A stretch of DNA of 64,000 nt from Promethearchaeota archaeon (GCA_048939995.1 JBHLOY010000005.1:32001-96000), one strand, 5' to 3'; shown: positions 37 through 13,738, counted from the first letter of the stretch. The notes: generated by a model from the sequence alone, not told the origin. Made by a program: numbers and translations.

Positions 37-879
37 TTGATCCATAAAATTTTAACTTGTAAAACTGAAAAAAAAATCCTAAAGAGTAGATTAAGTCGAA
101 TAAAGAAGTTAAAGTTGTATTTTAATCGATCAAAAAAGTTTAAAAGCTCCATACTTGAATCTTCTAAAAATATTTTTGAAATCGAGAAATTTAATCTTTA
201 TATTCATGTTATTGAAAAAATTTTAGAATTATTATGGACAACTCCTCTATACACTCACACACAACATATTTTAACAACGGAAGAGATGAAGTTTTTTATT
301 CAAGAGAATAATCTTGAAAAGGATTTTAAAAAGAAATCAACAAATTCTATTTTCTTGCTATGTCTAAGATATTATGAAAAGAAGTACAGATTTGATTTTG
401 AAGAAGAAGAAATTATTAATAAAATAAATGAATTAGAGAATTTTATGGGGAAAATGTGGTTTGATTTCAAAGATAACCATTTCGATTTAGCATTGAAAGA
501 ACTAAATCAACTCTTTAGTTGTTCTATTGATGATCAAAATTATAATATGAAAGTCAGTAAAGTTATAGATGAGCTTATACCAATCTTTTCAATCTATGAA
601 ATATTCAATAGACCTCTGTCTGAAACAGTTTATCCCGAGTCAATTCCGCGTACGAAAAGACCTGGCGCATACATTGCTAGCTTTTTAACTTCAAAATATA
701 ACCCATTTGGCGTAAATCTAATGCACCTCTTCAATAAATTAGCATTTTACAATTGGGGATATTTTATTTTACACAATAAACTAAATAGAAAAAATTTCTA
801 TGAATTCATTTTAAAACTCCCTATCTGGAAATATATTCCTCAGAATATAAAATTAAAAATCTTAAAGCAATCGATTTAA
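37..879 (+). CDS. hypothetical protein
   Basis: 280-aa ORF with a TTG start; overlaps the convergent elf1 by 4 bp; no recognisable motif. Confidence 0.6.
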   Translation: MIHKILTCKTEKKILKSRLSRIKKLKLYFNRSKKFKSSILESSKNIFEIEKFNLYIHVIEKILELLWTTPLYTHTQHILTTEEMKFFIQENNLEKDFKKKSTNSIFLLCLRYYEKKYRFDFEEEEIINKINELENFMGKMWFDFKDNHFDLALKELNQLFSCSIDDQNYNMKVSKVIDELIPIFSIYEIFNRPLSETVYPESIPRTKRPGAYIASFLTSKYNPFGVNLMHLFNKLAFYNWGYFILHNKLNRKNFYEFILKLPIWKYIPQNIKLKILKQSI

Positions 880-1457
880 AATTCCAAAAATCCGGGATCG
901 TCAAATATATCTTCAATTTTTTTTTCCTTTTTTATACTACTCTCATCATGCTCAGAAAATAAGGATTCTTCATCAGTTTTTATCCCTTTCTCCATTTCAT
1001 GGAGGTCCAGTTGATGGAGCGCATCTTTTTCTTTTTTCTTAAATTCCTCTGATTTCAATTTCCAACTGTTAACTTCTTCTAAATTCGCGTTCTCCTCCTC
1101 ATCTAATAATTCTGCGGCTTTTACTTTGCAAAGATCAGATAAAATCGAATAACAAAGAGCTAATTCCCCCCACTCATTTTCTTCTTTCAGTTTTTCAACT
1201 CTTCTTTCTAATCGTTGCATTTCTTGATCAGCATAATAGATATCAATAAAATCGCCAAAAGCATCAACAGGCTCTGAGATGGAATTTACTAATACCTCTT
1301 TTGTTAGACCACAATAACCACATTTAACAGTTGCGATTATTCCTTTTCTAAGCCCTTCAACTTTCACAGACTTCTCTCCACATGAAGGACAGGTGAATAT
1401 TTTTGGTACTTTCTTAACTCTTTTATATGTCTGTTGCTTTCTTTTTCTTCTTCCCAT
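876..1457 (-). CDS. elf1: transcription elongation factor Elf1 with long C-terminal extension
   Basis: Basic N-terminus MGRRKRK; FTCPSC...CGYC zinc ribbon; EPVDAFGDFID motif typical of Elf1; about 115 extra C-terminal residues. Confidence 0.9.
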   Translation of the reverse strand: MGRRKRKQQTYKRVKKVPKIFTCPSCGEKSVKVEGLRKGIIATVKCGYCGLTKEVLVNSISEPVDAFGDFIDIYYADQEMQRLERRVEKLKEENEWGELALCYSILSDLCKVKAAELLDEEENANLEEVNSWKLKSEEFKKKEKDALHQLDLHEMEKGIKTDEESLFSEHDESSIKKEKKIEDIFDDPGFLEF

Positions 1458-1649: not shown

Positions 1650-2750
1650 ATGGAACATAGAAATTTGTCATTGGATTATGATAAGAATTTAATTGATAAA
1701 ATCCTTGATGATATCGATATGAGATATATCATACTATTTCTTTACATTATTAGGAATGATTTATTTAAAGATTTAGGTGATAAAAGCCTTGTAGAATATT
1801 ATGAGAGAGTCTTAATTTTAGATGATATTTATAAGAGCAATATTCTGAAATTTTGGCCGAAAGATTTTACTGAAATTGCTATCGACTTGGGATTATTCAA
1901 AAATATCCGAACTTTAAGAGAATTTGACCAAAATGAAGAAGATTTTATTATAAAATTAGGAGAACAAACTATAACCTTAGAAAATAATGTGATATCAGTA
2001 CCAGATGATACTCTCTTTTTAATATTAAATAAAAAATTTAAATCTGTATCTAGGAGAAATTTCAATTCAGCGCTCATAAAATTAAAAGCTGTGAGGTGTG
2101 AATCCACTAATGCCATTCATTCTTTAATATATGAAATTAGTGATCATGATTATGCTTTATCTGATGATCTATACTACATCTTAGATCAATACGGTAATAT
2201 TTATCAAGCTATCAAAATAGAAATTACGATAGAGGGTTTTTTCCAAAGATTTAAAGAAATTCAAGATAATATCACTAAACTAATAAACATATTTGAACCA
2301 AAATTAAATAAAAAACCTGTTATATCAAAAATCCATAAAGCAATAGAAGATAGTAAGGATATCTTTGACTATCTCAAAGAAAACAATATTGAGCTACCTG
2401 AAAAATTTAATTTTGAAAAGATAGATACGAAAAATGAAACTTTTCAACAGTGGAAGTCAACTTTACTCGATTTGCTTGAAATAAGCTTTAATTTAAATAG
2501 TATTGAGAAGAATCTATTAGTTAATAAAAAATTATATTCTGGTAAGGGCAAAAAGTATAGTTATCTCACATTTATTGAAAAAGTTTCATATAATGAGGGA
2601 AACATTGTTAATGAGATTCAAGATTCTTTATTAAATCTAAGAGAAGAATTGGTCAGAATTAATAAAAGAATTTCCAAATTATCTAAAAAAGAAGTAAAGC
2701 TATTAAATTTGGATTATGAGAGAGCTATAATAATGAGTAGTGATGAATAA
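1650..2750 (+). CDS. hypothetical protein, predicted winged helix plus helical/coiled-coil region (possibly kleisin-like, MukF/JetA N-terminal type)
   Basis: 366 aa; segment SRRNFNSALIKL...LIYEISDHDYALSDDLYYIL has a wHTH pattern and is followed by long amphipathic helices; family call is inference. Confidence 0.45.
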   Translation: MEHRNLSLDYDKNLIDKILDDIDMRYIILFLYIIRNDLFKDLGDKSLVEYYERVLILDDIYKSNILKFWPKDFTEIAIDLGLFKNIRTLREFDQNEEDFIIKLGEQTITLENNVISVPDDTLFLILNKKFKSVSRRNFNSALIKLKAVRCESTNAIHSLIYEISDHDYALSDDLYYILDQYGNIYQAIKIEITIEGFFQRFKEIQDNITKLINIFEPKLNKKPVISKIHKAIEDSKDIFDYLKENNIELPEKFNFEKIDTKNETFQQWKSTLLDLLEISFNLNSIEKNLLVNKKLYSGKGKKYSYLTFIEKVSYNEGNIVNEIQDSLLNLREELVRINKRISKLSKKEVKLLNLDYERAIIMSSDE

Positions 2751-2752
2751 GT

Positions 2753-3712
2753 TTGAAATGTCCATCTTGTAATATTGAAATGGAGCCTTTAGTTGCTGGT
2801 ATATTTCAATGTCCACAATGCAGAAAAATTCTAAAACAAACTGAAGAAAAAGTTGAAAAGGAACTAAAAAAAATTATTGAGGAGGGTGAATTTCAAGATG
2901 GAGAATATTTTCATAAAAATCTTAGCTTGAATAAGAGCTACGAAGTTTGTGAAAAAGGAATTGTGGTATATAAATCTTCTAATTACCTTATGGCAGTTTT
3001 AATCTGTAAAAGCTCCTATAAAGAAAGATATATAAGACTATCATGGTGGAAAAACTCTCAACATGCAGGATTATTTAAAATCTATGATAAGGAAGTTCTT
3101 AAAAACACTATTAAAGTTTTAGAAAAAATTGATGAATCATTCGATGAATTTTGGAATTGGAAAGGAAAATATGGCAGATCTGAACAAAAGACAGAAGAGG
3201 AATTAAGTAAAGAAAAAAAAATGGAAATAATTAAAGCTCGAATTATTGAGAACCGAACTTGTCCAAATTGTCAAAATAAAATGGAGAAGAACAAGTCTCA
3301 TTATATATGTCAACATTGTTCTGAAATTGTAATATTAGAAGGATATAATCAACCGGTTTTTAGCATATCCCCCTCGGATCTTGACTTAACTTTCCATAGT
3401 AATTTCCCAATTAATTATTACATGCCTGTAAGCGGTATAACAGTAAAATGGTTAGTGGGTGAATGGAAAGCAATCGTAATAATCTATTCTAAAGATAATC
3501 CAAATAAAAAATGGGTAAGGTTCTATTGGTGGGTTCGAGATTTAACTAATTTTATTAAATTCGGTAAAAGAGAAATAGGAAATGGTGTTCAAATGGGATG
3601 GAAAGCGCAGAAAGGTATAGCATCTCCTAATATTTTTGATAAGAAGTTAATAAAACCTCTAATAATTGCGCTAAAAAATATATCTATAGAAATGGAATGG
3701 GATATTGATTAA
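2753..3712 (+). CDS. tandem (Zn ribbon + PC4-like domain) x2 protein
   Basis: CPSC..CPQC and CPNC..CQHC ribbons, each followed by a related domain (YIRLSWWK...KIYDKEVL and WVRFYWWV...KGIASPNIFDKKLI). Confidence 0.55.
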   Translation: MKCPSCNIEMEPLVAGIFQCPQCRKILKQTEEKVEKELKKIIEEGEFQDGEYFHKNLSLNKSYEVCEKGIVVYKSSNYLMAVLICKSSYKERYIRLSWWKNSQHAGLFKIYDKEVLKNTIKVLEKIDESFDEFWNWKGKYGRSEQKTEEELSKEKKMEIIKARIIENRTCPNCQNKMEKNKSHYICQHCSEIVILEGYNQPVFSISPSDLDLTFHSNFPINYYMPVSGITVKWLVGEWKAIVIIYSKDNPNKKWVRFYWWVRDLTNFIKFGKREIGNGVQMGWKAQKGIASPNIFDKKLIKPLIIALKNISIEMEWDID

Positions 3713-3735
3713 AAATAAAAAATACAACAATAAAA

Positions 3736-4875
3736 ATGACTGAAATTTCAGATTCAAATTGGAATGAGCTACTCCAAGACTTCGAAAAGGGTTTAGAGAA
3801 TGCTATAGAACGCCTTGAAAACAGAGACATTGAGAACATTCCCGGTGCTAAACAAGCTTTAATACAGCGACTAAATGATATGAAACTTATTTTTCCAAAA
3901 AATAATGGTGATATTTTTATAAAATCTATTAATGACAAAATACAAAATAGCTTTTTTCCAAACACTACCAATTTTTCAGAAGCTTTTGAGAAGATTTTAA
4001 AATCACGAACTCACGAACAAGACTTTATAATTAATGAACTATTAAACGGTTTTGTTACTTCTAAAGCAAGAGCACTCGCGACTGGAACTCAAGGGCCAGT
4101 TATTGATAGAATGGTTGAAGCGTTTAGTAAGAGAAATGACTTTCACATTGTGGATCATCAATTTTTTGCGATGTTTGGGGATCCAAATAAACCTAAAAAT
4201 TATGTGAAAAAGCAACTTGAACAACTTATAAATATGTTTGGATTAATATCAAAAGAACTTATCGTAGAGAAAGATGTTAGAACTGGTCGCCAAAAAAAAT
4301 ATACCTTTTATACTTTTCCAGAAGATATCATTAAAATCCTTGAAAAAAAATATTTGATAATAGATGATAAATTAGGATATGCTTATGTCTCTGAAGAATT
4401 TGATCGAAACGTATTTATTTGTATGTTCTTAGCAAATATTGCCATTAGTAGGGATAATTTAGAAAAAATAGGAGGAACTTATACTGTTAATGGAATTTCA
4501 GCAATATTTGCAGTAATATTACTGTTGAGTTTTTTACCAAAAATTTCTGTTGATGAAACAAATCCCATCTTAAATGATCCTAATTATGATGATGCAAATA
4601 TGAGCATTGTTCCAAAATCTTGGATGATGAGACAGGTACTGGAAAACTTATTCGAACCTCTTATAAAAATCGTAGCATATAGGTTAGGAGGTGGCTTGTG
4701 GATATCTAAGGTAATAGATTCTGAAGTTAATAAAAGAATTGTAAACCAAATACGATTTTTAATCAAGGATGTTAATAAATGGATCTTAGGTCAGTTAGTT
4801 AGAGTAGAAATCCCAATCTTCATTAGTATAGGAAATATTTTAACTGAAGTTCTAGTAGGATATAGAGAAGAGTAG
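3736..4875 (+). CDS. hypothetical protein with central winged helix
   Basis: 379 aa; KNYVKKQLEQLINMFGLISKE...RTGRQKKYTFYTF resembles a wHTH recognition helix and wing. Confidence 0.5.
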   Translation: MTEISDSNWNELLQDFEKGLENAIERLENRDIENIPGAKQALIQRLNDMKLIFPKNNGDIFIKSINDKIQNSFFPNTTNFSEAFEKILKSRTHEQDFIINELLNGFVTSKARALATGTQGPVIDRMVEAFSKRNDFHIVDHQFFAMFGDPNKPKNYVKKQLEQLINMFGLISKELIVEKDVRTGRQKKYTFYTFPEDIIKILEKKYLIIDDKLGYAYVSEEFDRNVFICMFLANIAISRDNLEKIGGTYTVNGISAIFAVILLLSFLPKISVDETNPILNDPNYDDANMSIVPKSWMMRQVLENLFEPLIKIVAYRLGGGLWISKVIDSEVNKRIVNQIRFLIKDVNKWILGQLVRVEIPIFISIGNILTEVLVGYREE

Positions 4876-4919
4876 GTTAACAGGTGATTTAGATAAGCTA
4901 TAAAAAAAAATCAACAAGA

Positions 4920-6200
4920 ATGGTTAAACCGGGAAGAAAAAGAGAAAAATGGACAGATATATTTCCTAGATATTTAACATTTATTAGCCATATGAGACCA
5001 ATTCTTAGAGAAACACGAAGAATTGTTATCGATTTAGACGCCGATCTTTTATTAGATACAGAAATTTTAGATAAAATCCGAGAAGAGGAAGAAAAAAGAA
5101 ATATTCGAAAGGTAAGAGCATTATCGGAGTTCTCAGCAATGTATCGATCAAATATCTATGAAATTATTAAGGATTTTATTATTAAATATAGAGAAAAAAT
5201 TCCTATGATTGATATTAAAGATTATATTGTAGAGTTTCTTCATGAATCCGTAGATGCTTTAAACATATTAAGGCATATCACTAATCCAGATGAATCTAAT
5301 CTAGAAGATACGTATCTCTATAATTTAGTAAAATTTATCGAGGAAATATTATTTCCCAGAGGAGCAAATTTGAAATTCATCTATGAAAAACTATTAAAAC
5401 ATACTCAAAATTTTTATGAATGTCAACGCCATATGTTGCAATCCCATACTTTTTATCGTGAGAAAATAGAAACTAGTGATGTTTTTGAAATCCCCGTTTT
5501 ATCCCCTAAAGTATTTCAGCTTATCAACAATATAACATCACTTTATAATCTTGATCCGAATTTTGGAAAGTATCCTGAAGATGAGAGATACGAAATTCCA
5601 ATGATATTAAAAAATGATGTTTTTCTACCATATATCGACTCAATAGCTAACACTGAGGAAGAAGCTATACAAAGTATTGCTGAGAGAGTAGGTCTTCGTC
5701 TAATAGATAATATATTTTTGGCACCTCGCGAAGATTTTGTCAACATATTAATAGATAATAATTTTCTGCGTGAAAACAAACAATCAGATGGTATTATAAG
5801 ATTGTATCCTCAGTTTAATAACGAAACTTTACTCCTCTACTACTTAGCTTTTGCTTCTCAGAGACGTGGGTTTTTATCAAAAGAGCTTATTAATTGGATA
5901 TCAATGAATTTTGCTTTTCTAATTTATATGGGTATTTTGAAATGGAAGTTGTCTGATGAAAATATTTTTTATCCTATTTTCAAAGATTTACAAACAAATG
6001 AGAAGGTACTTCCCTATTTGATGAAATTAATTTGCTTCCCAAATTATTTAGGATTGGATAAAATGAAAATAAGAGACTCACCCCAATATAGAAAAGAAAT
6101 TTTTAACTTTATGGGAGCTGAAATAGATAACCTGAAAATCCTTATTTCTGAGATTGCAGAATTTTGTGAAAAATTTGAAAAAGAAAGAAAAAATAATTAA
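4920..6200 (+). CDS. conserved-looking hypothetical protein, helical, possible winged helix
   Basis: 426-aa ORF inside the operon; EDFVNILIDNNFLRENKQSDGIIRLYP resembles a wH wing. Confidence 0.6.
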   Translation: MVKPGRKREKWTDIFPRYLTFISHMRPILRETRRIVIDLDADLLLDTEILDKIREEEEKRNIRKVRALSEFSAMYRSNIYEIIKDFIIKYREKIPMIDIKDYIVEFLHESVDALNILRHITNPDESNLEDTYLYNLVKFIEEILFPRGANLKFIYEKLLKHTQNFYECQRHMLQSHTFYREKIETSDVFEIPVLSPKVFQLINNITSLYNLDPNFGKYPEDERYEIPMILKNDVFLPYIDSIANTEEEAIQSIAERVGLRLIDNIFLAPREDFVNILIDNNFLRENKQSDGIIRLYPQFNNETLLLYYLAFASQRRGFLSKELINWISMNFAFLIYMGILKWKLSDENIFYPIFKDLQTNEKVLPYLMKLICFPNYLGLDKMKIRDSPQYRKEIFNFMGAEIDNLKILISEIAEFCEKFEKERKNN

Positions 6201-7323
6201 ATTACATAAAAAAGAGATGAGATTTATTAGTAATAAAGATAGTGAAAAAAAGATGATATACACTGATGATGTCATCAAAGATAGAATGGGGAAATATGGA
6301 GCAGTATACTTTCCTTATGATATAAAAGAAACCGTTGAGGATATTTTAGGGAATGAAGTTAAAAAAGAAATTTTAAACGACTTTTTTAATGCCTTAAAAA
6401 AATATGACGAATTTACTGAACAGCTGAAAGAAACTAAATTAAACCCGAGTTTAACTGTTCTACTATATGGCCCACCAGGCACGGGTAAAACTTCATTAAC
6501 GAGGGGATTTGCGAAGAAATATGAAATCCCAATATGCGTGGTAGAAACTGATAGATTAGTTTCACCTCTATTAGGAGATACTATTAAACATATAAGACGT
6601 GTAGTAGATTTAGCTGCTGAAATTGCTCGGGAAAGATCTGCTTTTATTTTATTTTTTGATGAAATAGATGCTATTGGATCTGAAAGGTCAAATATCCATG
6701 AAGTAGGAGAAATAAAAAGAGCTGTAATATCCTTTTTACAAGTTATAGATAGAATTAACTATGAAGGTGTTCCATTAGCCATATTTGGAGCAACAAATCA
6801 TCAAAATCAATTAGATTCCGCTATTTGGAGGAGATTCACCTTTCATCTTCAATTTGATTTTCCTGACTTTCATTTAAGAAGGCAAATAATTGATTCATTT
6901 TTACAAAAGATAAAAAATGCAAAAATAGGAGTTGATGAATCTATTTTTGTGAATTTAGAAAAAGAATATAATGAATTTCAGAGTTTAGAAAAAGATTTGA
7001 AACGTAAAGTTGGTCAACAAGCTTCGGAGTTCAAAAATAGTACACTATGGAAAGATATCGAAAAAAAAAGTAAAATAGATGGAATTTTAAAGTTAACTCA
7101 TGGATATTCAGGTTCCGATATCGAACGTGGTACTAAAGTGGCATTGTTAAAAGCTATGAATAGAGAGATTTTGACTTATGATATGTTCTATCAAGCTTTA
7201 AAGTTAGTTGGTGGAACAGCTATTCATGTAGAACGCCAAGATATATTAAGTGACATTAAACAAATTTCAGAAAATGCAAATACAAATAAGTCGGGTAAAA
7301 TAGTAGGCCCTCCTGAAATTTAA
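6154..7323 (+). CDS. classical-clade AAA+ ATPase, single AAA domain
   Basis: Walker A GPPGTGKT, Walker B FFDEID, SRH ATNHQNQLDSAIWRRF, lid GYSGSDI; true start probably ATG 6217. Confidence 0.92.
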   Translation: MQNFVKNLKKKEKIIKLHKKEMRFISNKDSEKKMIYTDDVIKDRMGKYGAVYFPYDIKETVEDILGNEVKKEILNDFFNALKKYDEFTEQLKETKLNPSLTVLLYGPPGTGKTSLTRGFAKKYEIPICVVETDRLVSPLLGDTIKHIRRVVDLAAEIARERSAFILFFDEIDAIGSERSNIHEVGEIKRAVISFLQVIDRINYEGVPLAIFGATNHQNQLDSAIWRRFTFHLQFDFPDFHLRRQIIDSFLQKIKNAKIGVDESIFVNLEKEYNEFQSLEKDLKRKVGQQASEFKNSTLWKDIEKKSKIDGILKLTHGYSGSDIERGTKVALLKAMNREILTYDMFYQALKLVGGTAIHVERQDILSDIKQISENANTNKSGKIVGPPEI

Positions 7324-7362
7324 TCAATTATAGTAAATTAAAATTACCTTTTAATTAAAATT

Positions 7363-8400
7363 ATGAGTTTTTCATTATTTAACCTAGAAAAAATTAAAGA
7401 GTTAAAATCTCCTATTAATGATCTTCAAATTCAACTTAATAAATTGAATGAAATTAAGAAGAAAGTGATTGAAAAGAAGAAATTTCTTAATGAGATCTTT
7501 TCTAAGGATGCTATAATTGATCAATATGAAGATTTAATAGGCATTATTAACCATATAGACAATAAATTGCTTGAGATTTTGAAAATAAACGTGAATCTAT
7601 CTCACTTTTACAATGATAATCTAATAGAGAAATATAAAGAAAATATCAAACAAAAATTAAAACTGGTAAAAATTGATGAGAACCTAACAAAAAAAATCGG
7701 AATAAATTTAATAGAAAATAAGAAAGTCTCCAAGATTATTAATAAAGTAACATATATTTCTTCCATTACTTTAAACCAATGGGTAGATATTATTGATTCA
7801 CTTAAACAGTATTCAATATTCTTGAAAACTATTAATAAAGTTTCCAAATTTTACAATCTCTTGATTCAAGAGAAACTCGATAAGAATTTAACTGAAATTC
7901 CTCAAGGTACGGATGAAAATTTGATACAAGATTATAAACAAAAATTTCTAGAAGATCCGAACATAACTTTTTTTCAATTTATTCAGAATATAGAACGCAG
8001 ACTTTCTACTCAAGATTTGACAATAACAAGGGAGTTTATTAAGAAAAATAAGGAAAAGGAAGAAATTGAAAAATTAAAGAAAAAGCAACAAGAACAACAA
8101 GAGGCATATGAAAATTATTTAATCCTATCCAACGGTGAATTCGAAAGATTAAGACGTAAAAAAAAAAGGCAAAAATTAAAAGATGTCTCTATTAAACAAA
8201 TAAGTGAAGATAAAATTGAAATTCCTGAAGATGTTTCGAAAAAAATAGAGGAATTTAAGTCCCAATTCGAAAGCTCTTTCAAACATAAAAAATTTGTTGA
8301 AGAAAATGAAAATAAAGATCCTTTAGAGTTAATTCGTGAAAGAAAGAATAAGAAAGAAAAAGAATATAAGAAATTCAAAAAGCATATTGAAAATACGTGA
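7363..8400 (+). CDS. coiled-coil hypothetical protein with charged C-terminus
   Basis: 345 aa, K/E-rich heptad patterns, basic patch RLRRKKKRQK. Confidence 0.6.
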   Translation: MSFSLFNLEKIKELKSPINDLQIQLNKLNEIKKKVIEKKKFLNEIFSKDAIIDQYEDLIGIINHIDNKLLEILKINVNLSHFYNDNLIEKYKENIKQKLKLVKIDENLTKKIGINLIENKKVSKIINKVTYISSITLNQWVDIIDSLKQYSIFLKTINKVSKFYNLLIQEKLDKNLTEIPQGTDENLIQDYKQKFLEDPNITFFQFIQNIERRLSTQDLTITREFIKKNKEKEEIEKLKKKQQEQQEAYENYLILSNGEFERLRRKKKRQKLKDVSIKQISEDKIEIPEDVSKKIEEFKSQFESSFKHKKFVEENENKDPLELIRERKNKKEKEYKKFKKHIENT

Positions 8401-10009
8401 TTCTGAAATTCAGAAAAATGATTTTGTGATTAGTATAGGTTCCAAAGAAATAATTTTAACAGATAAGTTCAGTTTAATTAAGGGTAAATTCAAAATCAAC
8501 ATGATATGTCAACATAAACTCAAAAATTTCATAGAATTAGGAGCTAATTTGGATTTAATTCCGCTAGAAAAATTCCTAAATACTTTATATGGTGCTAAAA
8601 AGAAAAAAGAATTAAACAAAATTTCGGGGCTTTTGGAATTTATAAATAATCAAAGTAAAACTATTAGAGAAAATTTGAATTTTGTTTCTGAATATATTAA
8701 CATTTTAAAATTAATACTTTTGACTACAGAGATAAATTCATTAAAAAAAAAGAAAGAAACTTTAGAAAAAGAGTCTGAAATTGCCAAAACTTATAAAGAT
8801 TCAAGAGATTTGAACGCAATTTCAGATTTATTAACGAAGATAAAGAAATCAATAGAAGATAATAAAAAAAGAGCTTCATATTTAGAGGAAGACTATTCTT
8901 TGCAGAGAAATCAAATTGAACAAATTGAGAAAAATATTAGTAATTACGATTTAGAAATCGATAAATTAAATTCTCAGATGAAAATGTGCTTTACTCAAAT
9001 TAATCAAATCTCCCGTTTAACTGAAATATCATCAGAAGACAATAAAAATGAAGCTCTAAAAAGTTTAGGAATTAAAATTGATCTCTCTAATTCAGAGAAG
9101 ATTCGTATGCTACAGTTAAAAGCAAAAGAAATCTCCTACAATATTAAGCAAGCGAAGTCTATAAAAGAAGATCTAGTATTGAAGCTTAATAGATTATATC
9201 CAAAATATGAAATCTATAAGAAGGATTACGATAAGCTTATATCTATAATTGAAAGAGATAATGGAAAGATCAATGAGTTAGAAAATGAATTGAAAAAGAA
9301 ATTAAGAGAAAAGAGTGGAAATTTGACTGAAGAAATCAGTGATCTGAATACTTTAAGACCATTAAATCAAATCGACGAGGATATTAAGGAAGTGGATAAA
9401 AAATTAAATGAAATAATACAATCAAATAAATTAGTAGGAATTAAAGATTGGCAGGATCTATTATCTATAAAAGAAAAACTAGGTAATTTTTCCAATCAAA
9501 TCTCAAAAAAAGCTAATGAATTAACTATAAACGATAATAAGTCTATATTTTTGGAAGCACTCCATAGTTATAGAAAATTTGAACTAATCCTAAATGAAAT
9601 TGAAAAAACAATTAATTATTTTTTGTTGGAGATCAAAATTTTGAGTCAATTTAAAATTGTAACTAATGAAACTAATACTAGCTTTCTTATCAAGACTTTA
9701 CTTAAAAAAAATAATAATAAAGAAATAACATTGATGGAGTTGACAACTCCAGAAAAAGTGTTCTTCACTGTAGCTTTATACTTATCACTATGTATTGTTT
9801 TGAACCAGAAATACATAATATTTTCAAATTTATTCATTCCAAATGACTATAATAAGAGCGGTTCTATTTTAAGAGCATTTAGAAAAATTCTACCAATATT
9901 TAAAAAAATTGACATGTTAAGTAATTTTAATTTAATTCTAATACTTTCAAATATAGAAATTAAAAAACAAATTGAAGATATAAAAATTATAGAAATTAAG
10001 GAAAATTGA
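8336..10009 (+). CDS. SMC/Rad50-like coiled-coil protein with degenerate ABC head
   Basis: Likely start TTG 8387. N-terminus KIRDSEIQ..KEIILTDKFSLIKG follows the SMC head layout but has no GxxGxGKS. Long coiled coil. C-terminus ELTTPEKVFFTVALYLSL...YIIFSNL corresponds to LSGGE...AL.LAL...hhhhDE. Confidence 0.6.
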   Translation: MKERIRKKKNIRNSKSILKIRDSEIQKNDFVISIGSKEIILTDKFSLIKGKFKINMICQHKLKNFIELGANLDLIPLEKFLNTLYGAKKKKELNKISGLLEFINNQSKTIRENLNFVSEYINILKLILLTTEINSLKKKKETLEKESEIAKTYKDSRDLNAISDLLTKIKKSIEDNKKRASYLEEDYSLQRNQIEQIEKNISNYDLEIDKLNSQMKMCFTQINQISRLTEISSEDNKNEALKSLGIKIDLSNSEKIRMLQLKAKEISYNIKQAKSIKEDLVLKLNRLYPKYEIYKKDYDKLISIIERDNGKINELENELKKKLREKSGNLTEEISDLNTLRPLNQIDEDIKEVDKKLNEIIQSNKLVGIKDWQDLLSIKEKLGNFSNQISKKANELTINDNKSIFLEALHSYRKFELILNEIEKTINYFLLEIKILSQFKIVTNETNTSFLIKTLLKKNNNKEITLMELTTPEKVFFTVALYLSLCIVLNQKYIIFSNLFIPNDYNKSGSILRAFRKILPIFKKIDMLSNFNLILILSNIEIKKQIEDIKIIEIKEN

Positions 10010-10018
10010 TTTATTATC

Positions 10019-10492
10019 ATGGAAGAGCTAGTTAAATTAATAACGAACACGATCTTGACGCAACCTCAGAAAATGATTAGAGAGGAAGATCTCAAGAATT
10101 TATGCAAAAATTATGATTTTGATAAAATTATAAGTGAAGTCTATCTCAATCTAAAGAATGTAGGCTTTGAATTTATTAAATCGAAATTTCTCAATGAAAC
10201 ATTCTATATTCTAACTTCTGAAGGAAAAGATGATACAATTTCAGCATCACAATATGGTACATTGGCGTTAATTCTTGCTATCAGCAAAGAGATTGATGAT
10301 AAATTGAAATTTGAAGATCTAAAAGAGATTTTTTCTGAAGTGTGGGAATCTGACATAGAATTTTTAATTAGAAAGGATTATTTAAGAAAAATAGAAGATT
10401 CAAATATTTTGTCAGTAACTCCTCAAGGAAAAGCATTAATGAAAAATATTATTCAAAACTTAAATTTAAAGAATTTATTAGATCTTTTTTAA
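10019..10492 (+). CDS. tandem winged-helix KITE-like protein (ScpB/Nse1/MAGE-like)
   Basis: 157 aa; IISEVYLNLKNVGFEF..FYIL (WH-A) and TLALILAI...DIEFLIRKDYLRK...LSVTPQGK (WH-B); sits directly after the SMC-like gene. Confidence 0.55.
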   Translation: MEELVKLITNTILTQPQKMIREEDLKNLCKNYDFDKIISEVYLNLKNVGFEFIKSKFLNETFYILTSEGKDDTISASQYGTLALILAISKEIDDKLKFEDLKEIFSEVWESDIEFLIRKDYLRKIEDSNILSVTPQGKALMKNIIQNLNLKNLLDLF

Positions 10493-10506: not shown

Positions 10507-10935
10507 TCATTCTTTTGAAGGATTTTCGATATCTAATTTAAATTGATCATATATTTTTTTTACTCGTTCCGCAGATGGACCTGTACCGCGTACACCATTT
10601 TCATCGACTATAATTTTACCATTTAATATTGAAATTATATTCTGATCTGTAATATAATTTACATGACCTTTTGAGAAGATAGTAGCGATTCGATCTGCCA
10701 GAGCCTGCATAGGAAAGGGTTCTTCTTCCACAGTAACATAAAAGTAAAAAGTACTTCTTATCAAAACCTTTGGAAACTCTTTATTCTTTTCATTTTTTGC
10801 ATTTTCAAGGATTAAATTAGAATCTTCACTCACTCCCTTCAATAATCCCACAAAAAATTTATCCTTGTCAAGATAGACCTTTACAATTTTGTCTATTAAT
10901 GTTTGCAGTTCTGTATTATATTGTCTTAAGGACAT
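10507..10935 (-). CDS. Sm-like protein with C-terminal domain (SmAP3/Lsm-C type)
   Basis: Sm1 ELQTLIDKIVKVYL..FVGLLKG..NLILENA, Sm2 VLIRS, plus a C-terminal domain ending GVRGTGPSAERVKKIY. Confidence 0.85.
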   Translation of the reverse strand: MSLRQYNTELQTLIDKIVKVYLDKDKFFVGLLKGVSEDSNLILENAKNEKNKEFPKVLIRSTFYFYVTVEEEPFPMQALADRIATIFSKGHVNYITDQNIISILNGKIIVDENGVRGTGPSAERVKKIYDQFKLDIENPSKE

Positions 10936-11738: not shown

Positions 11739-12677
11739 TTAAGATAGATTCCAATCAAATTTATAAACTAAATAAGAAAATAATATCCCTCCAAGTTCTG
11801 GAATATAATATAATATATAATATGGAGCTATAAATCCATAAAATAGTACTGGCAATAAACGGATTACGACTATTATTATGAGAAACGTTCTACCCTTTAA
11901 TCTGATGGGGAAAAAATAGAAAAAAGCAGTTATTTCTCTATTAGCATTCGGAAGTATCATGTAGGATAATAATCCATAAATTCCTCCCCAAGCAAAACCT
12001 GCATAGAAGATTGACCATTCTAATGGATATAAATTAATTAAAGCTAATCTTAGTAATATAAATATTAACATAGAAGTTATAGAACTAAGTAAGAAAAGCT
12101 TAATTAAAAAGGATGTCCCATAATTTAACTCAATACTTCGAGAGATAAAAAATAAAAAAAATATCATTATAATAAAGAAAAAAAATCCAAAAAGATCAAA
12201 AACGTTGTATATAAAAAGACTGGTAAGAATAGTATGGAATAAATAATCAAAGATCAAGAAATTTAAGTCAAAAAAAATATATTTTCCAAAACCATAAGAT
12301 AAAAGAATGAAACCTAAGATCGAAAATCCCAGGATTAAACCCATTAGAATTTTTGTGCCTTTAATTCGTGACCTTCCCCAAATAGAAGGCTGGGATCGTT
12401 TTTTTAATAATTTTACTTCTCTTTCTTGACGTTTTAAATATTTTTTCAATGCTTTTGGTGCTTTAAATGAGCCTTCTTGTACAGTTACTTTAGATTCTTT
12501 ATTAGTATACGTAGGAATCTCCTTGACATCAACTGGGACTAATGGTACATGTTTCAATTCAAACGTACATTGATGATTTTCAGGTAATCTATGTTTTTTA
12601 CAGAACGTTCCCCCACAATATTTACATTTGAAGGGTAAATAACCAATTTTTTCTCCACAATGTTCACAAAAAGCCAA
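11739..12677 (-). CDS. AN1 zinc finger fused to rhomboid-fold pseudoprotease
   Basis: [23 protein letters not shown]1 finger; rhomboid-like TM layout (LTSLF, SIELNYG); GxSG replaced by GFAWGG and HxxG replaced by PELGG. Confidence 0.75.
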
Positions 12678-12775
12678 TCCTACTCACTTTTAAAGATTAA
12701 TAAAAATTAATATAGTTTATTAAAAAACTTTTTACTTCATAATTCTTTTGATTGTTTTTTAATATTACTTTTTGA

Positions 12776-13738
12776 TTAGTGTGGGATATATGGATTGATA
12801 TCAAATGGAGCAAAAATACTCCAAAGAGTAATAATCAAGAGAATAAGCAGTGGTACCATTAAAAAAATATAAATCTTCTTATTCCATTTCCAAATGTTCT
12901 GACCGTCTAAAATTCCAAATGGTAGCATGTTAAACGCACCTAACATAAAATTAAAATAAGCAGCGTAACCAATAAAGCTATTTAGAGGATATGAACCTTT
13001 TGGAATTAGAAAAGATATAAGGAGAAGTATTGAGCCATAAATTAAATTGATAAAAGGTCCTGCTGCTTTGCATAAGCCAGTTTTTCTACTGACTTTATCT
13101 AAACCCAAAACTACAACCGCTCCAGGTAGTGCGAGCATGGGTAATCCTGGTGATGATGTGAATAATCCATACAATCCAATTATAATGCTAAAACCAGTTA
13201 ATAACATTCCAAATGTGAGTAGTCTAAATTTGGTTTGAAGTCCAAAATGAATTGCAACTTGACGATGCCCTAATTCATGAAAAAGGAAAGTAGTCATATA
13301 AAAAGTAGCTAACATAAATAAAGCCCATGTATAATTAAGATAAATGAGTTCGAAGAACGAAATAAATCCTATAATGAATATTAGGGCAGTACCAATTAAG
13401 AAATGTAGAAGCTCTGACTTATGTGCTAATAAAATTCCCTTAAATTCAATTCCAGATTCTGGATCAAATGCATCATCAGGTATGGATTTTTCTTGGCGAT
13501 ACCAAGTATATGTTCCATCTGTTGTGCCTCGAATGGGAACATCTGAGGATATGAACTGTTGAGTGGGTGGGGTTGTTACAAAATGAGTAGAAGGTGCTTG
13601 ATATGATTTTAAATTTGCTATTACAATATCACATTCATGATCAAGTGGATCTTTATGAAAGCTACAGTAGTTTTGCTGACATTTACTGCAATGATATAGA
13701 TTGTTTGTTTCTCTTCCACAATGATAACATAACGGCAT
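12776..13738 (-). CDS. AN1-like zinc finger fused to M50 (site-2) intramembrane metalloprotease
   Basis: CYHC..CSKC..YCSFHKDPLDHEC; HELGH, AAGP and FNMLPFGILDG motifs intact. Confidence 0.88.
   Translation of the reverse strand: MPLCYHCGRETNNLYHCSKCQQNYCSFHKDPLDHECDIVIANLKSYQAPSTHFVTTPPTQQFISSDVPIRGTTDGTYTWYRQEKSIPDDAFDPESGIEFKGILLAHKSELLHFLIGTALIFIIGFISFFELIYLNYTWALFMLATFYMTTFLFHELGHRQVAIHFGLQTKFRLLTFGMLLTGFSIIIGLYGLFTSSPGLPMLALPGAVVVLGLDKVSRKTGLCKAAGPFINLIYGSILLLISFLIPKGSYPLNSFIGYAAYFNFMLGAFNMLPFGILDGQNIWKWNKKIYIFLMVPLLILLIITLWSIFAPFDINPYIPH

Follow-up and report, generated by a model that had tools for sequence, protein, structure and literature searches.

The stretch of DNA analysed here (the window, 64,000 nt; GCA_048939995.1 JBHLOY010000005.1:32001-96000) belongs to a Loki-type Asgard archaeon (Promethearchaeota) and holds, at positions 1650-10492, an operon of eight genes that we call g1 to g8 in order of their start coordinates (Table 1). 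The seventh gene encodes a protein of the SMC5/6 type that has neither ATP-binding motifs nor a hinge, and it is accompanied by a kite protein (g8), a modelled kleisin-like partner of that kite (g6), an intact AAA+ ATPase (g5) and four further genes (g1 to g4). Judged by its architecture, the operon very probably represents a third Asgard system of the SMC5/6 type, here in a reduced form that is fixed in the chromosome; such a system brings along an AAA+ ATPase of its own as well as three or four helpers.

The AlphaFold 2 (AF2) model of g7 (predicted local distance difference test score, pLDDT, 84) has a reduced N-lobe, a long antiparallel coiled coil and an ABC C-lobe; its apex consists of short helices only, without a hinge. 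Foldseek matched the model to Rad50 (top match), Smc5/6, JetC and LmuB (E 1e-9 to 1e-5), and with VIA-align Smc5/6 came first (Z 12.1 for the head region, root-mean-square deviation 5.3, 289 aligned residues), the Smc5/6 scores of Z 12-13 being tied with those of plain coiled coils (Z 11-12). HHalign connected g7 to Asgard SMC5/6-type profiles at 95-97%, against 8% for a single condensin-type SMC, and none of the other genes of the operon matched an SMC profile. Walker A, the signature motif and a CxxC zinc hook were each found in 0 of the 42 orthologues, 34 of which carry LTTPEK at the signature position (9740-9757 in the window), and the reading frame has stayed open among sequences that are only 19-63% identical. 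Both halves of the initial annotation of this gene, an SMC-shaped protein with eroded ATPase motifs, hold: the ABC-head fold is present in the AF2 model and the Foldseek matches, and the motifs are lost in all 42 orthologues. We conclude that g7 is a protein of the SMC5/6 type that lacks both the ATP-binding motifs and the hinge and by its sequence should be ATPase-dead.

The tandem winged-helix protein g8 proved to be a kite. HHalign connects it at 95.6% to the canonical kite family of the SMC5/6-related operon on contig C11 of the same genome, and the best, though weak, PDB matches of a broad g8 profile were MAGE-G1 (E 0.013) and human NSE3 (E 0.043). It was modelled as a dimer with a pLDDT of 86, and in a tree it stands apart from the widespread SMC5/6-related kites (support 96/99). 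The kite of the cultured MK-D1 (L112:14819-15559) has a C-terminal tail with many Lys/Thr-rich, histone-H1-like repeats that close relatives (e.g. L113) do not have. A complex model of two g8 with residues 1-225 of g6 reached an interaction prediction score from aligned errors (ipSAE) of 0.74 (best of three controls 0.00), passing a mark that is attained by 58 of 80 solved complexes and by 2 of 110 mismatched pairs. The runs share at least 96% of their contacts, the partner has a pLDDT of 76-78, and the invariant residues Y79/G80 of g8 lie against the invariant W140/G113 of g6. A basic segment of g6 (residues 91-167, at 7633-7863) spans both kite copies. As modelled, g6 would be the kleisin-like partner, with the g8 dimer wrapping this segment in the way kites hold a kleisin.

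In HHalign comparisons of full-length profiles all operon genes stayed at or below 1.6% against kleisins, where the control reached 87-90%, and no C-terminal winged helix was detected in g6. The resemblance of g6 to kleisins in sequence was seen by eye only, its profile scores being equal to those of reversed controls, and g6 as a detached SMC hinge was also rejected (SMC profiles <=0.9%). The initial annotation had taken g1 for the kleisin; this assignment has to be withdrawn, as g1 scores at most 0.8% against kleisin profiles. Because the intact operons described below have a true kleisin beside the g1 orthologue and distinct from it, g1 has another job.

The operon is well conserved. At 45 of the 46 loci that have all eight genes these lie within 10 kb in the same order and on the same strand, the sole exception being a 1.8-kb gap, so that the synteny in relatives proposed as a check in the initial annotation was indeed found. 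With g4 as a marker, 122 of 150 Lokiarchaeia genomes have the operon, as do 37 of the 40 that are of good quality; MK-D1 is among the genomes with the conserved operon, which is single-copy in the genome of the window and in most others. At one locus (L045, G008:C7:20000-37000) it is broken by about 8 kb between the AAA gene and g6, with an elf1 gene inside the break. No orthologue was found in 157 Asgard genomes outside two Loki families with a first-pass filter that can miss distant copies. Averaged over 37 loci, identity to the window is highest for g4 (81%), followed by g3 (78%), g5 (73%), g2 (69%), g8 (65%) and g1 (63%), with 83% for Lsm and 76% for Elf1 in the flanks; g6 and g7 change rapidly (45% and 38%, versus 70-83% in flanking housekeeping genes). 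The same genome has an intact condensin-type SMC-ScpA-ScpB operon on contig C5 and an intact SMC5/6-related SMC-kleisin-kite operon on contig C11, which makes the g1-g8 operon its third system.

Another important finding was a counterpart with an intact motor, reached through distant kite and SMC matches. These operons have the layout g1-g3-g4-AAA-SMC (1050-1120 aa)-multi-winged-helix gene-kleisin-kite and were found on six other Asgard contigs: in a Helarchaeota genome, on three further contigs (one of these ends within the kleisin), and in G212 and G298, two genomes that belong to the order of the window (one contig ends before the kite). Walker A, Walker B and an HS[ST]GQ signature are all present in their SMCs, with the Q-loop Gln replaced by Ala or Gly, and their kleisin reaches 87-90% against kleisin profiles in HHalign. 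In 157 other sampled Asgard genomes the intact form was not found, and a metagenome scan with the intact SMC returned only unrelated SMC heads.

In the complete chromosome of G212 (L194:1480-14845 = G212:C1:1133479-1146844) the intact operon is inverted and has as its neighbours a g2 of native type (59% to MK-D1) on one side and, on the other, what is left of a broken native kite gene. The site continues with galK, lsm and a methylase gene, in agreement with MK-D1; the left flank has undergone rearrangement, and no second copy of the AAA gene or g3 was found in this genome. We read this as a same-site replacement of the native form by the intact operon. Another operon, degenerate and distinct from the former, encodes an SMC-like protein of 732 aa and an apparent kleisin fragment of 140 aa; it clusters with one of the intact operons, and a tree of g3, g4 and the AAA rejected a single origin of the dead forms (approximately unbiased test, p 1.8e-5; long branches are present). 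Judged from these sequences, loss of the SMC motor happened on at least two occasions. At each decay of the SMC g1, g3, g4, an active AAA+, the kite and a kite-binding segment were kept, and therefore these would carry the retained function.

Several related arrangements were seen on other contigs. In a divergent variant (L196:2866-13583, in G293, and L179:4319-6829) g2 comes first and is accompanied by two g1-like genes, one of which apparently bears an N-terminal zinc ribbon, and by a dead SMC-like protein of 680 aa. Downstream of the intact operon in a Helarchaeota genome (L162:12440-19037) lie genes for a MoxR AAA, a vWA protein, RNase III and Piwi (Argonaute), and the g2 homologues are two separate genes on the opposite strand. 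A Hodarchaeota contig (L192:947-4081) has a lone intact SMC of the same class near radA and ribosomal protein genes. The widespread SMC5/6-related operon (G000:C11:431681-437587, L129; L172, L173, L175, L177, L178) has an AAA-like gene immediately upstream of smc, which is eroded in most lineages, retains Walker A in L172 and forms a separate group in the AAA tree; with its dead AAA and live SMC this operon is the mirror image of the g1-g8 operon. A further Asgard SMC5/6-type class (L169:5889-11926, L170:5771-10636, L171:5903-10920) has an SMC of 950-1000 aa, a putative kleisin and a kite. A small Cys-rich zinc-finger gene comes next, and in L169 then genes that by eye are JAB-like and E1-like; eukaryotic Smc5/6 with its RING subunits may offer a parallel.

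The initial annotation had eight co-directional genes with gaps of at most 44 bp or overlaps, and eight plus-strand reading frames were recovered at the coordinates of Table 1, with distances from g1 to g8 of 2, 23, 44, -47, 39, -65 and 9 nt, between a divergent elf1 and a convergent lsm. The GC content of the operon is like that of its flanks. Searches of the window genes against Pfam, NCBIfam and PADLOC recognised only the AAA+ domain and the zinc ribbons, and no nuclease domain was seen in the operon by Pfam and PADLOC scans or by inspection of the alignments. Promoter and terminator scans of the operon, made with a bacterial model, gave results at chance level. The two long overlaps (g4/g5 and g6/g7) are probably an effect of start choice, because the lineage appears often to begin genes at ATT, ATA or TTG; comparison with relatives points to starts near 6217-6226 for the AAA gene and near 8387 for the SMC-like gene. 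Candidate starts of this kind lie at 6217-6228, 4893, 2753 and 8387; in several relatives (from among L052, L054, L056 and L072) the AAA frame has no ATG, GTG or TTG over 100-250 codons and opens at an ATT preceded by a GAGATGAG-like motif. Gene callers would shorten such proteins. Around the operon, the Elf1 of the window has about 110 aa added at its C-terminus, and two tandem AN1 zinc-finger membrane proteins (relatives: rhomboid-like, M50 peptidase-like) are encoded downstream, at 11739-13738.

Table 1. Genes of the operon and its two flanking genes, with positions counted from the first nucleotide of the window
Feature	Coordinates	Strand	Description	Evidence
g1	1650..2750	+	helper, 366 aa, C-terminal half helical	orthologues in intact operons (E 1e-19 to 1e-12)
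g2	2753..3712	+	319 aa, with a copy of a beta-rich repeat after each of its two zinc ribbons	zinc ribbons, HHalign
g3	3736..4875	+	379 aa, helical bundle with inserted winged-helix-like domain (residues ~105-230)	AF2 model
g4	4920..6200, may start at ATA 4893	+	426 aa, g3 paralogue	HHalign; found in 122/150 Lokiarchaeia
g5	6154..7323, likely start 6217 or ATT 6226	+	bare classical AAA+ ATPase, intact	Walker A at 6469-6492
g6	7363..8400	+	predicted kleisin-like kite partner, 345 aa, charged tail	complex model
g7	8336..10009, likely start ~8387	+	mini-SMC, ATPase-dead by sequence	shrunken ABC head, antiparallel coiled coil
g8	10019..10492	+	kite, Nse1/Nse3/MAGE type, 157 aa, tandem winged helix	HHalign, PDB profiles, dimer model
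Elf1	876..1457	-	left flank, divergent, outside the operon	Pfam PF05129 (E 8e-19); neighbour conserved
Lsm/SmAP3-type gene	10507..10935	-	right flank, convergent, outside the operon	Pfam Lsm_C (E 2e-11); neighbour conserved

The AAA+ ATPase g5 is intact, as had been annotated: Walker A, Walker B, sensor and Arg-finger are present in 33 of 33 orthologues, and an N-domain is absent. It matches Pfam AAA (E 4e-25) and, as its best profile, PADLOC IetA (E 4e-59), with an NCBIfam IetA score of 180 that is below the cut-off of 510; a weak similarity to CdvC was also seen (E 1e-23, score 84 versus a cut-off of 650). Together with the AAAs of the intact operons it forms one clade (Shimodaira-Hasegawa-like approximate likelihood ratio test, 99). 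By profile comparison g3 and g4, the latter the most conserved gene of the operon, are paralogues (HHalign 97.4%, E 1e-11; reversed controls 0.2-0.3%), and g4 is the likely partner of g3. The AF2 model of g3 (pLDDT 79; predicted template modelling score 0.79) had a best structural match at Z 5.5 and winged-helix matches at Z of about 4; the whole protein matched nothing (PDB by Foldseek and VIA-align; Atlas, TM <=0.28), which is not proof of a new fold, and an Atlas feature match to the FokI recognition domain (0.78) was at chance level. The initial count of three winged-helix proteins is therefore upheld in part, with the insert in the g3 model speaking for it and g4 joining by paralogy only. 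PDB profile searches with g1, g3 and g4 returned nothing significant, and no invariant set of catalytic-looking residues survives in broad alignments. In g1, Cys150 and His157 are both conserved in 29 of 30 alignment rows and are a possible metal site. For g2 the duplication (repeat versus repeat HHalign 89.6%) and the zinc ribbons of the initial annotation stood; its likeness to PC4 was confirmed by no library, with no PC4 or Pur match among Pfam and PDB profiles, and the protein resembles a Pur/PC4-like nucleic-acid binder by eye only. Homologues of g2 adjoin three intact operons. The only matches of a search with its repeat were artificial alphaRep repeats, an artefact.

A third, Asgard-only SMC complex was proposed from an Nse3-related kite in the accessible part of van Hooff et al. 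(bioRxiv 10.1101/2024.01.07.573240), and archaeal SMC5/6-related SMC-kleisin-kite operons are described there and in the accessible part of Yoshinaga and Inagaki (PMC8665677). The g1-g8 operon shares with these an SMC5/6-type head, an Nse1/3-type kite and an SMC-kleisin(-like)-kite arrangement besides a condensin-type operon; it differs from them in that its SMC is ATPase-dead, half-length and hinge-less, in having no canonical kleisin, and in having an intact AAA+ ATPase plus four helper genes. A table in the accessible part of 10.1101/2024.01.07.573240 gives three kites for a Lokiarchaeum of family SOKP01, the same number as in the genome of the window, and g8 orthologues may therefore be among the 'Nse3-related' kites. 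For MK-D1, two three-gene SMC-kleisin-kite sets are listed in those parts of the two papers (10.1101/2024.01.07.573240; PMC8665677), neither of which is the g1-g8 operon, and the dead SMC, the AAA+ and the helpers are not described in that part of van Hooff et al. (10.1101/2024.01.07.573240). In a literature search on Asgard SMC, kite and Wadjet, with most subscription papers outside its reach, we found no description of the operon, which is thus undescribed as far as it could be searched.

With eukaryotic Smc5/6 (Nse1-Nse3-Nse4) the operon has in common that Smc5/6 is the best structural match of g7 and that the best PDB matches of the kite profile are MAGE-G1 and NSE3, and the intact relatives carry an Smc5/6-style Pro where the H-loop His is expected; here, however, there is one kite gene, a dedicated AAA+, no RING or SUMO ligase and no motor or hinge. 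Wadjet (JetABCD/MksBEFG) likewise combines an SMC-family protein, a kite and a kleisin-like subunit with accessory genes, Lamassu (LmuABC) a short hinge-less SMC with accessory genes, and like both of these the intact Asgard form is patchy and appears mobile. Wadjet and Lamassu both require an active SMC ATPase, and the active LmuB ATPase of Lamassu contrasts with g7, which has no ATPase motifs. No match to the profiles of JetA, JetB, JetC, the JetD Toprim, LmuA or LmuC was found among the window genes (PADLOC, Pfam), and the intact SMC gave only generic ABC-head matches to defence profiles. The statement of the initial annotation that a JetD-like Toprim nuclease is not recognisable agrees with these scans, in which the cluster also matched no named defence system. 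IetAS (AAA+ IetA plus S8 peptidase IetS) is similar in that g5 is a bare AAA+ with IetA as best profile, but an S8 peptidase is absent from the eight genes. ASRP/ClsN/Sph and Rad50 (PMC9389158) share a short hinge-less coiled coil with an ABC-type head; they have Walker A/B and a zinc hook, whereas g7 has neither Walker A nor CxxC. The operon thus resembles an SMC5/6-type kite-kleisin system from which it is set apart by its lack of ATPase and hinge, and it is not Wadjet, Lamassu, IetAS or ASRP. The derived SMC-type complex first supposed, with its ABC motor lost, a kite and an intact AAA+, agrees with the fold, profile and motif evidence.

With no head ATPase, no hinge and no C-terminal winged helix detected in its kleisin-like subunit, such a complex would, as established SMC biology leads us to infer, neither close a ring nor extrude loops. 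Two g8 and one g6 would instead clamp DNA statically, carried by a coiled-coil stalk about 20 nm long; the g3-g4 pair, g1 and g2, the latter resembling a single-stranded DNA binder, might direct this clamp to unusual DNA (stalled forks, bubbles, junctions). The AAA+ hexamer would power the system and presumably remodel the clamp, loading or releasing it by tugging on one subunit. That this AAA+-remodelled kite-kleisin clamp serves the upkeep of the host chromosome, alongside the two intact SMC complexes, is the role we favour, on a balance that is about even, because the site is fixed and g3 and g4 are conserved at the level of housekeeping genes. More tentatively, the operon may represent a new class, in which an AAA+ unfoldase with a g3/g4/g1 adaptor took over the drive, repeated losses removed the SMC ATPase, hinge and ring but left the clamp, and a mobile, powered counterpart can replace the complex.

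Several observations weigh against this interpretation. The system is not universal, as neither the kite nor the AAA was found in G071 (100% complete) and G250. The g6 protein has no significant sequence-profile match to kleisins, and its gene precedes the SMC gene rather than following it. The pass of the complex model may mirror a likeness to solved kite-kleisin complexes, and g6 was the sole partner modelled with g8. A tree of the SMC head (C-lobe), in which long branches occur, does not group g7 with the intact SMCs; since it does not settle the dead heads, the descent of g7 from the SMC of the intact operons rests on operon context. Finally, a defence role would suit the patchy occurrence and apparent mobility of the intact form. 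The place of the operon among core genes had initially been taken to speak against a defence island; the site is indeed fixed, but the argument is weakened because the intact form is not only patchy and apparently mobile but has replaced the dead form at that site.

The main alternative, possible though rather unlikely, is foreign-DNA surveillance like that of Wadjet, Lamassu and eukaryotic Smc5/6, in which the complex would sense small circular or linear invader DNA, the AAA+ would switch a g1/g3/g4 effector that silences DNA or stops growth without cutting, and the Loki form would be domesticated. It is favoured by the patchy intact form (six scattered contigs, not found in the 157 other Asgard genomes sampled), by an AAA closest to anti-phage IetA and TRIP13 models and by the fast change of g6 and g7. 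It would also agree with the replacement of the native form beside the native g2 in two genomes and with the one intact copy near MoxR-vWA, RNase III and Piwi genes. On the other side, Pfam and PADLOC scans found no nuclease or known effector domain, the operon keeps one fixed site among core genes in 122 of 150 genomes with highly conserved g3 and g4, and the second degenerate copy likewise lies among core genes.

An improbable reading is that the operon joins two modules, g1-g3-g4-AAA as an independent remodeller and g6-g7-g8 as a slowly decaying SMC remnant with a minor structural role. The separation of AAA and g6 in G008, the lone SMC of the same type in Hodarchaeota and the existence of SMC-like plus kite, or kleisin plus kite, without the remaining genes would agree with it, but the two halves are linked at 45 of 46 loci and in every distant operon with sufficient DNA, and they travel together in the replacement events. 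A complex that is no longer a DNA machine, in which g7 with its coiled coil and the AAA+ would have been recruited as a Vps4/CdvC-like scaffold for protein remodelling or cell division, might account for the bare AAA with weak CdvC similarity, the long coiled coils and an SMC unable to use ATP, but is most improbable in view of the retained kite, winged-helix-like domains, zinc ribbons and basic kite-binding segment, the lack of an ESCRT-III or MIT match in Pfam and the replacement by an intact SMC operon at the same site.

The SMC-kleisin-kite complexes described so far are powered by their own head ATPases, and a conserved version without motor, hinge and ring would reveal roles of kite and kleisin beyond loop extrusion. 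The intact and dead forms at one chromosomal site are a natural pair for biochemical comparison, and as the operon is present in the cultured MK-D1, its expression and chromosome binding can be measured. The operon fleshes out the third Asgard SMC5/6-type complex that was proposed from trees, and it is relevant to the question of how eukaryotic Smc5/6, and the AAA+-driven removal of SMC complexes from DNA, arose. If it does represent a new class with the AAA+ as its drive, the closest lineage to eukaryotes would possess a complex that derives from SMC and is powered in trans.

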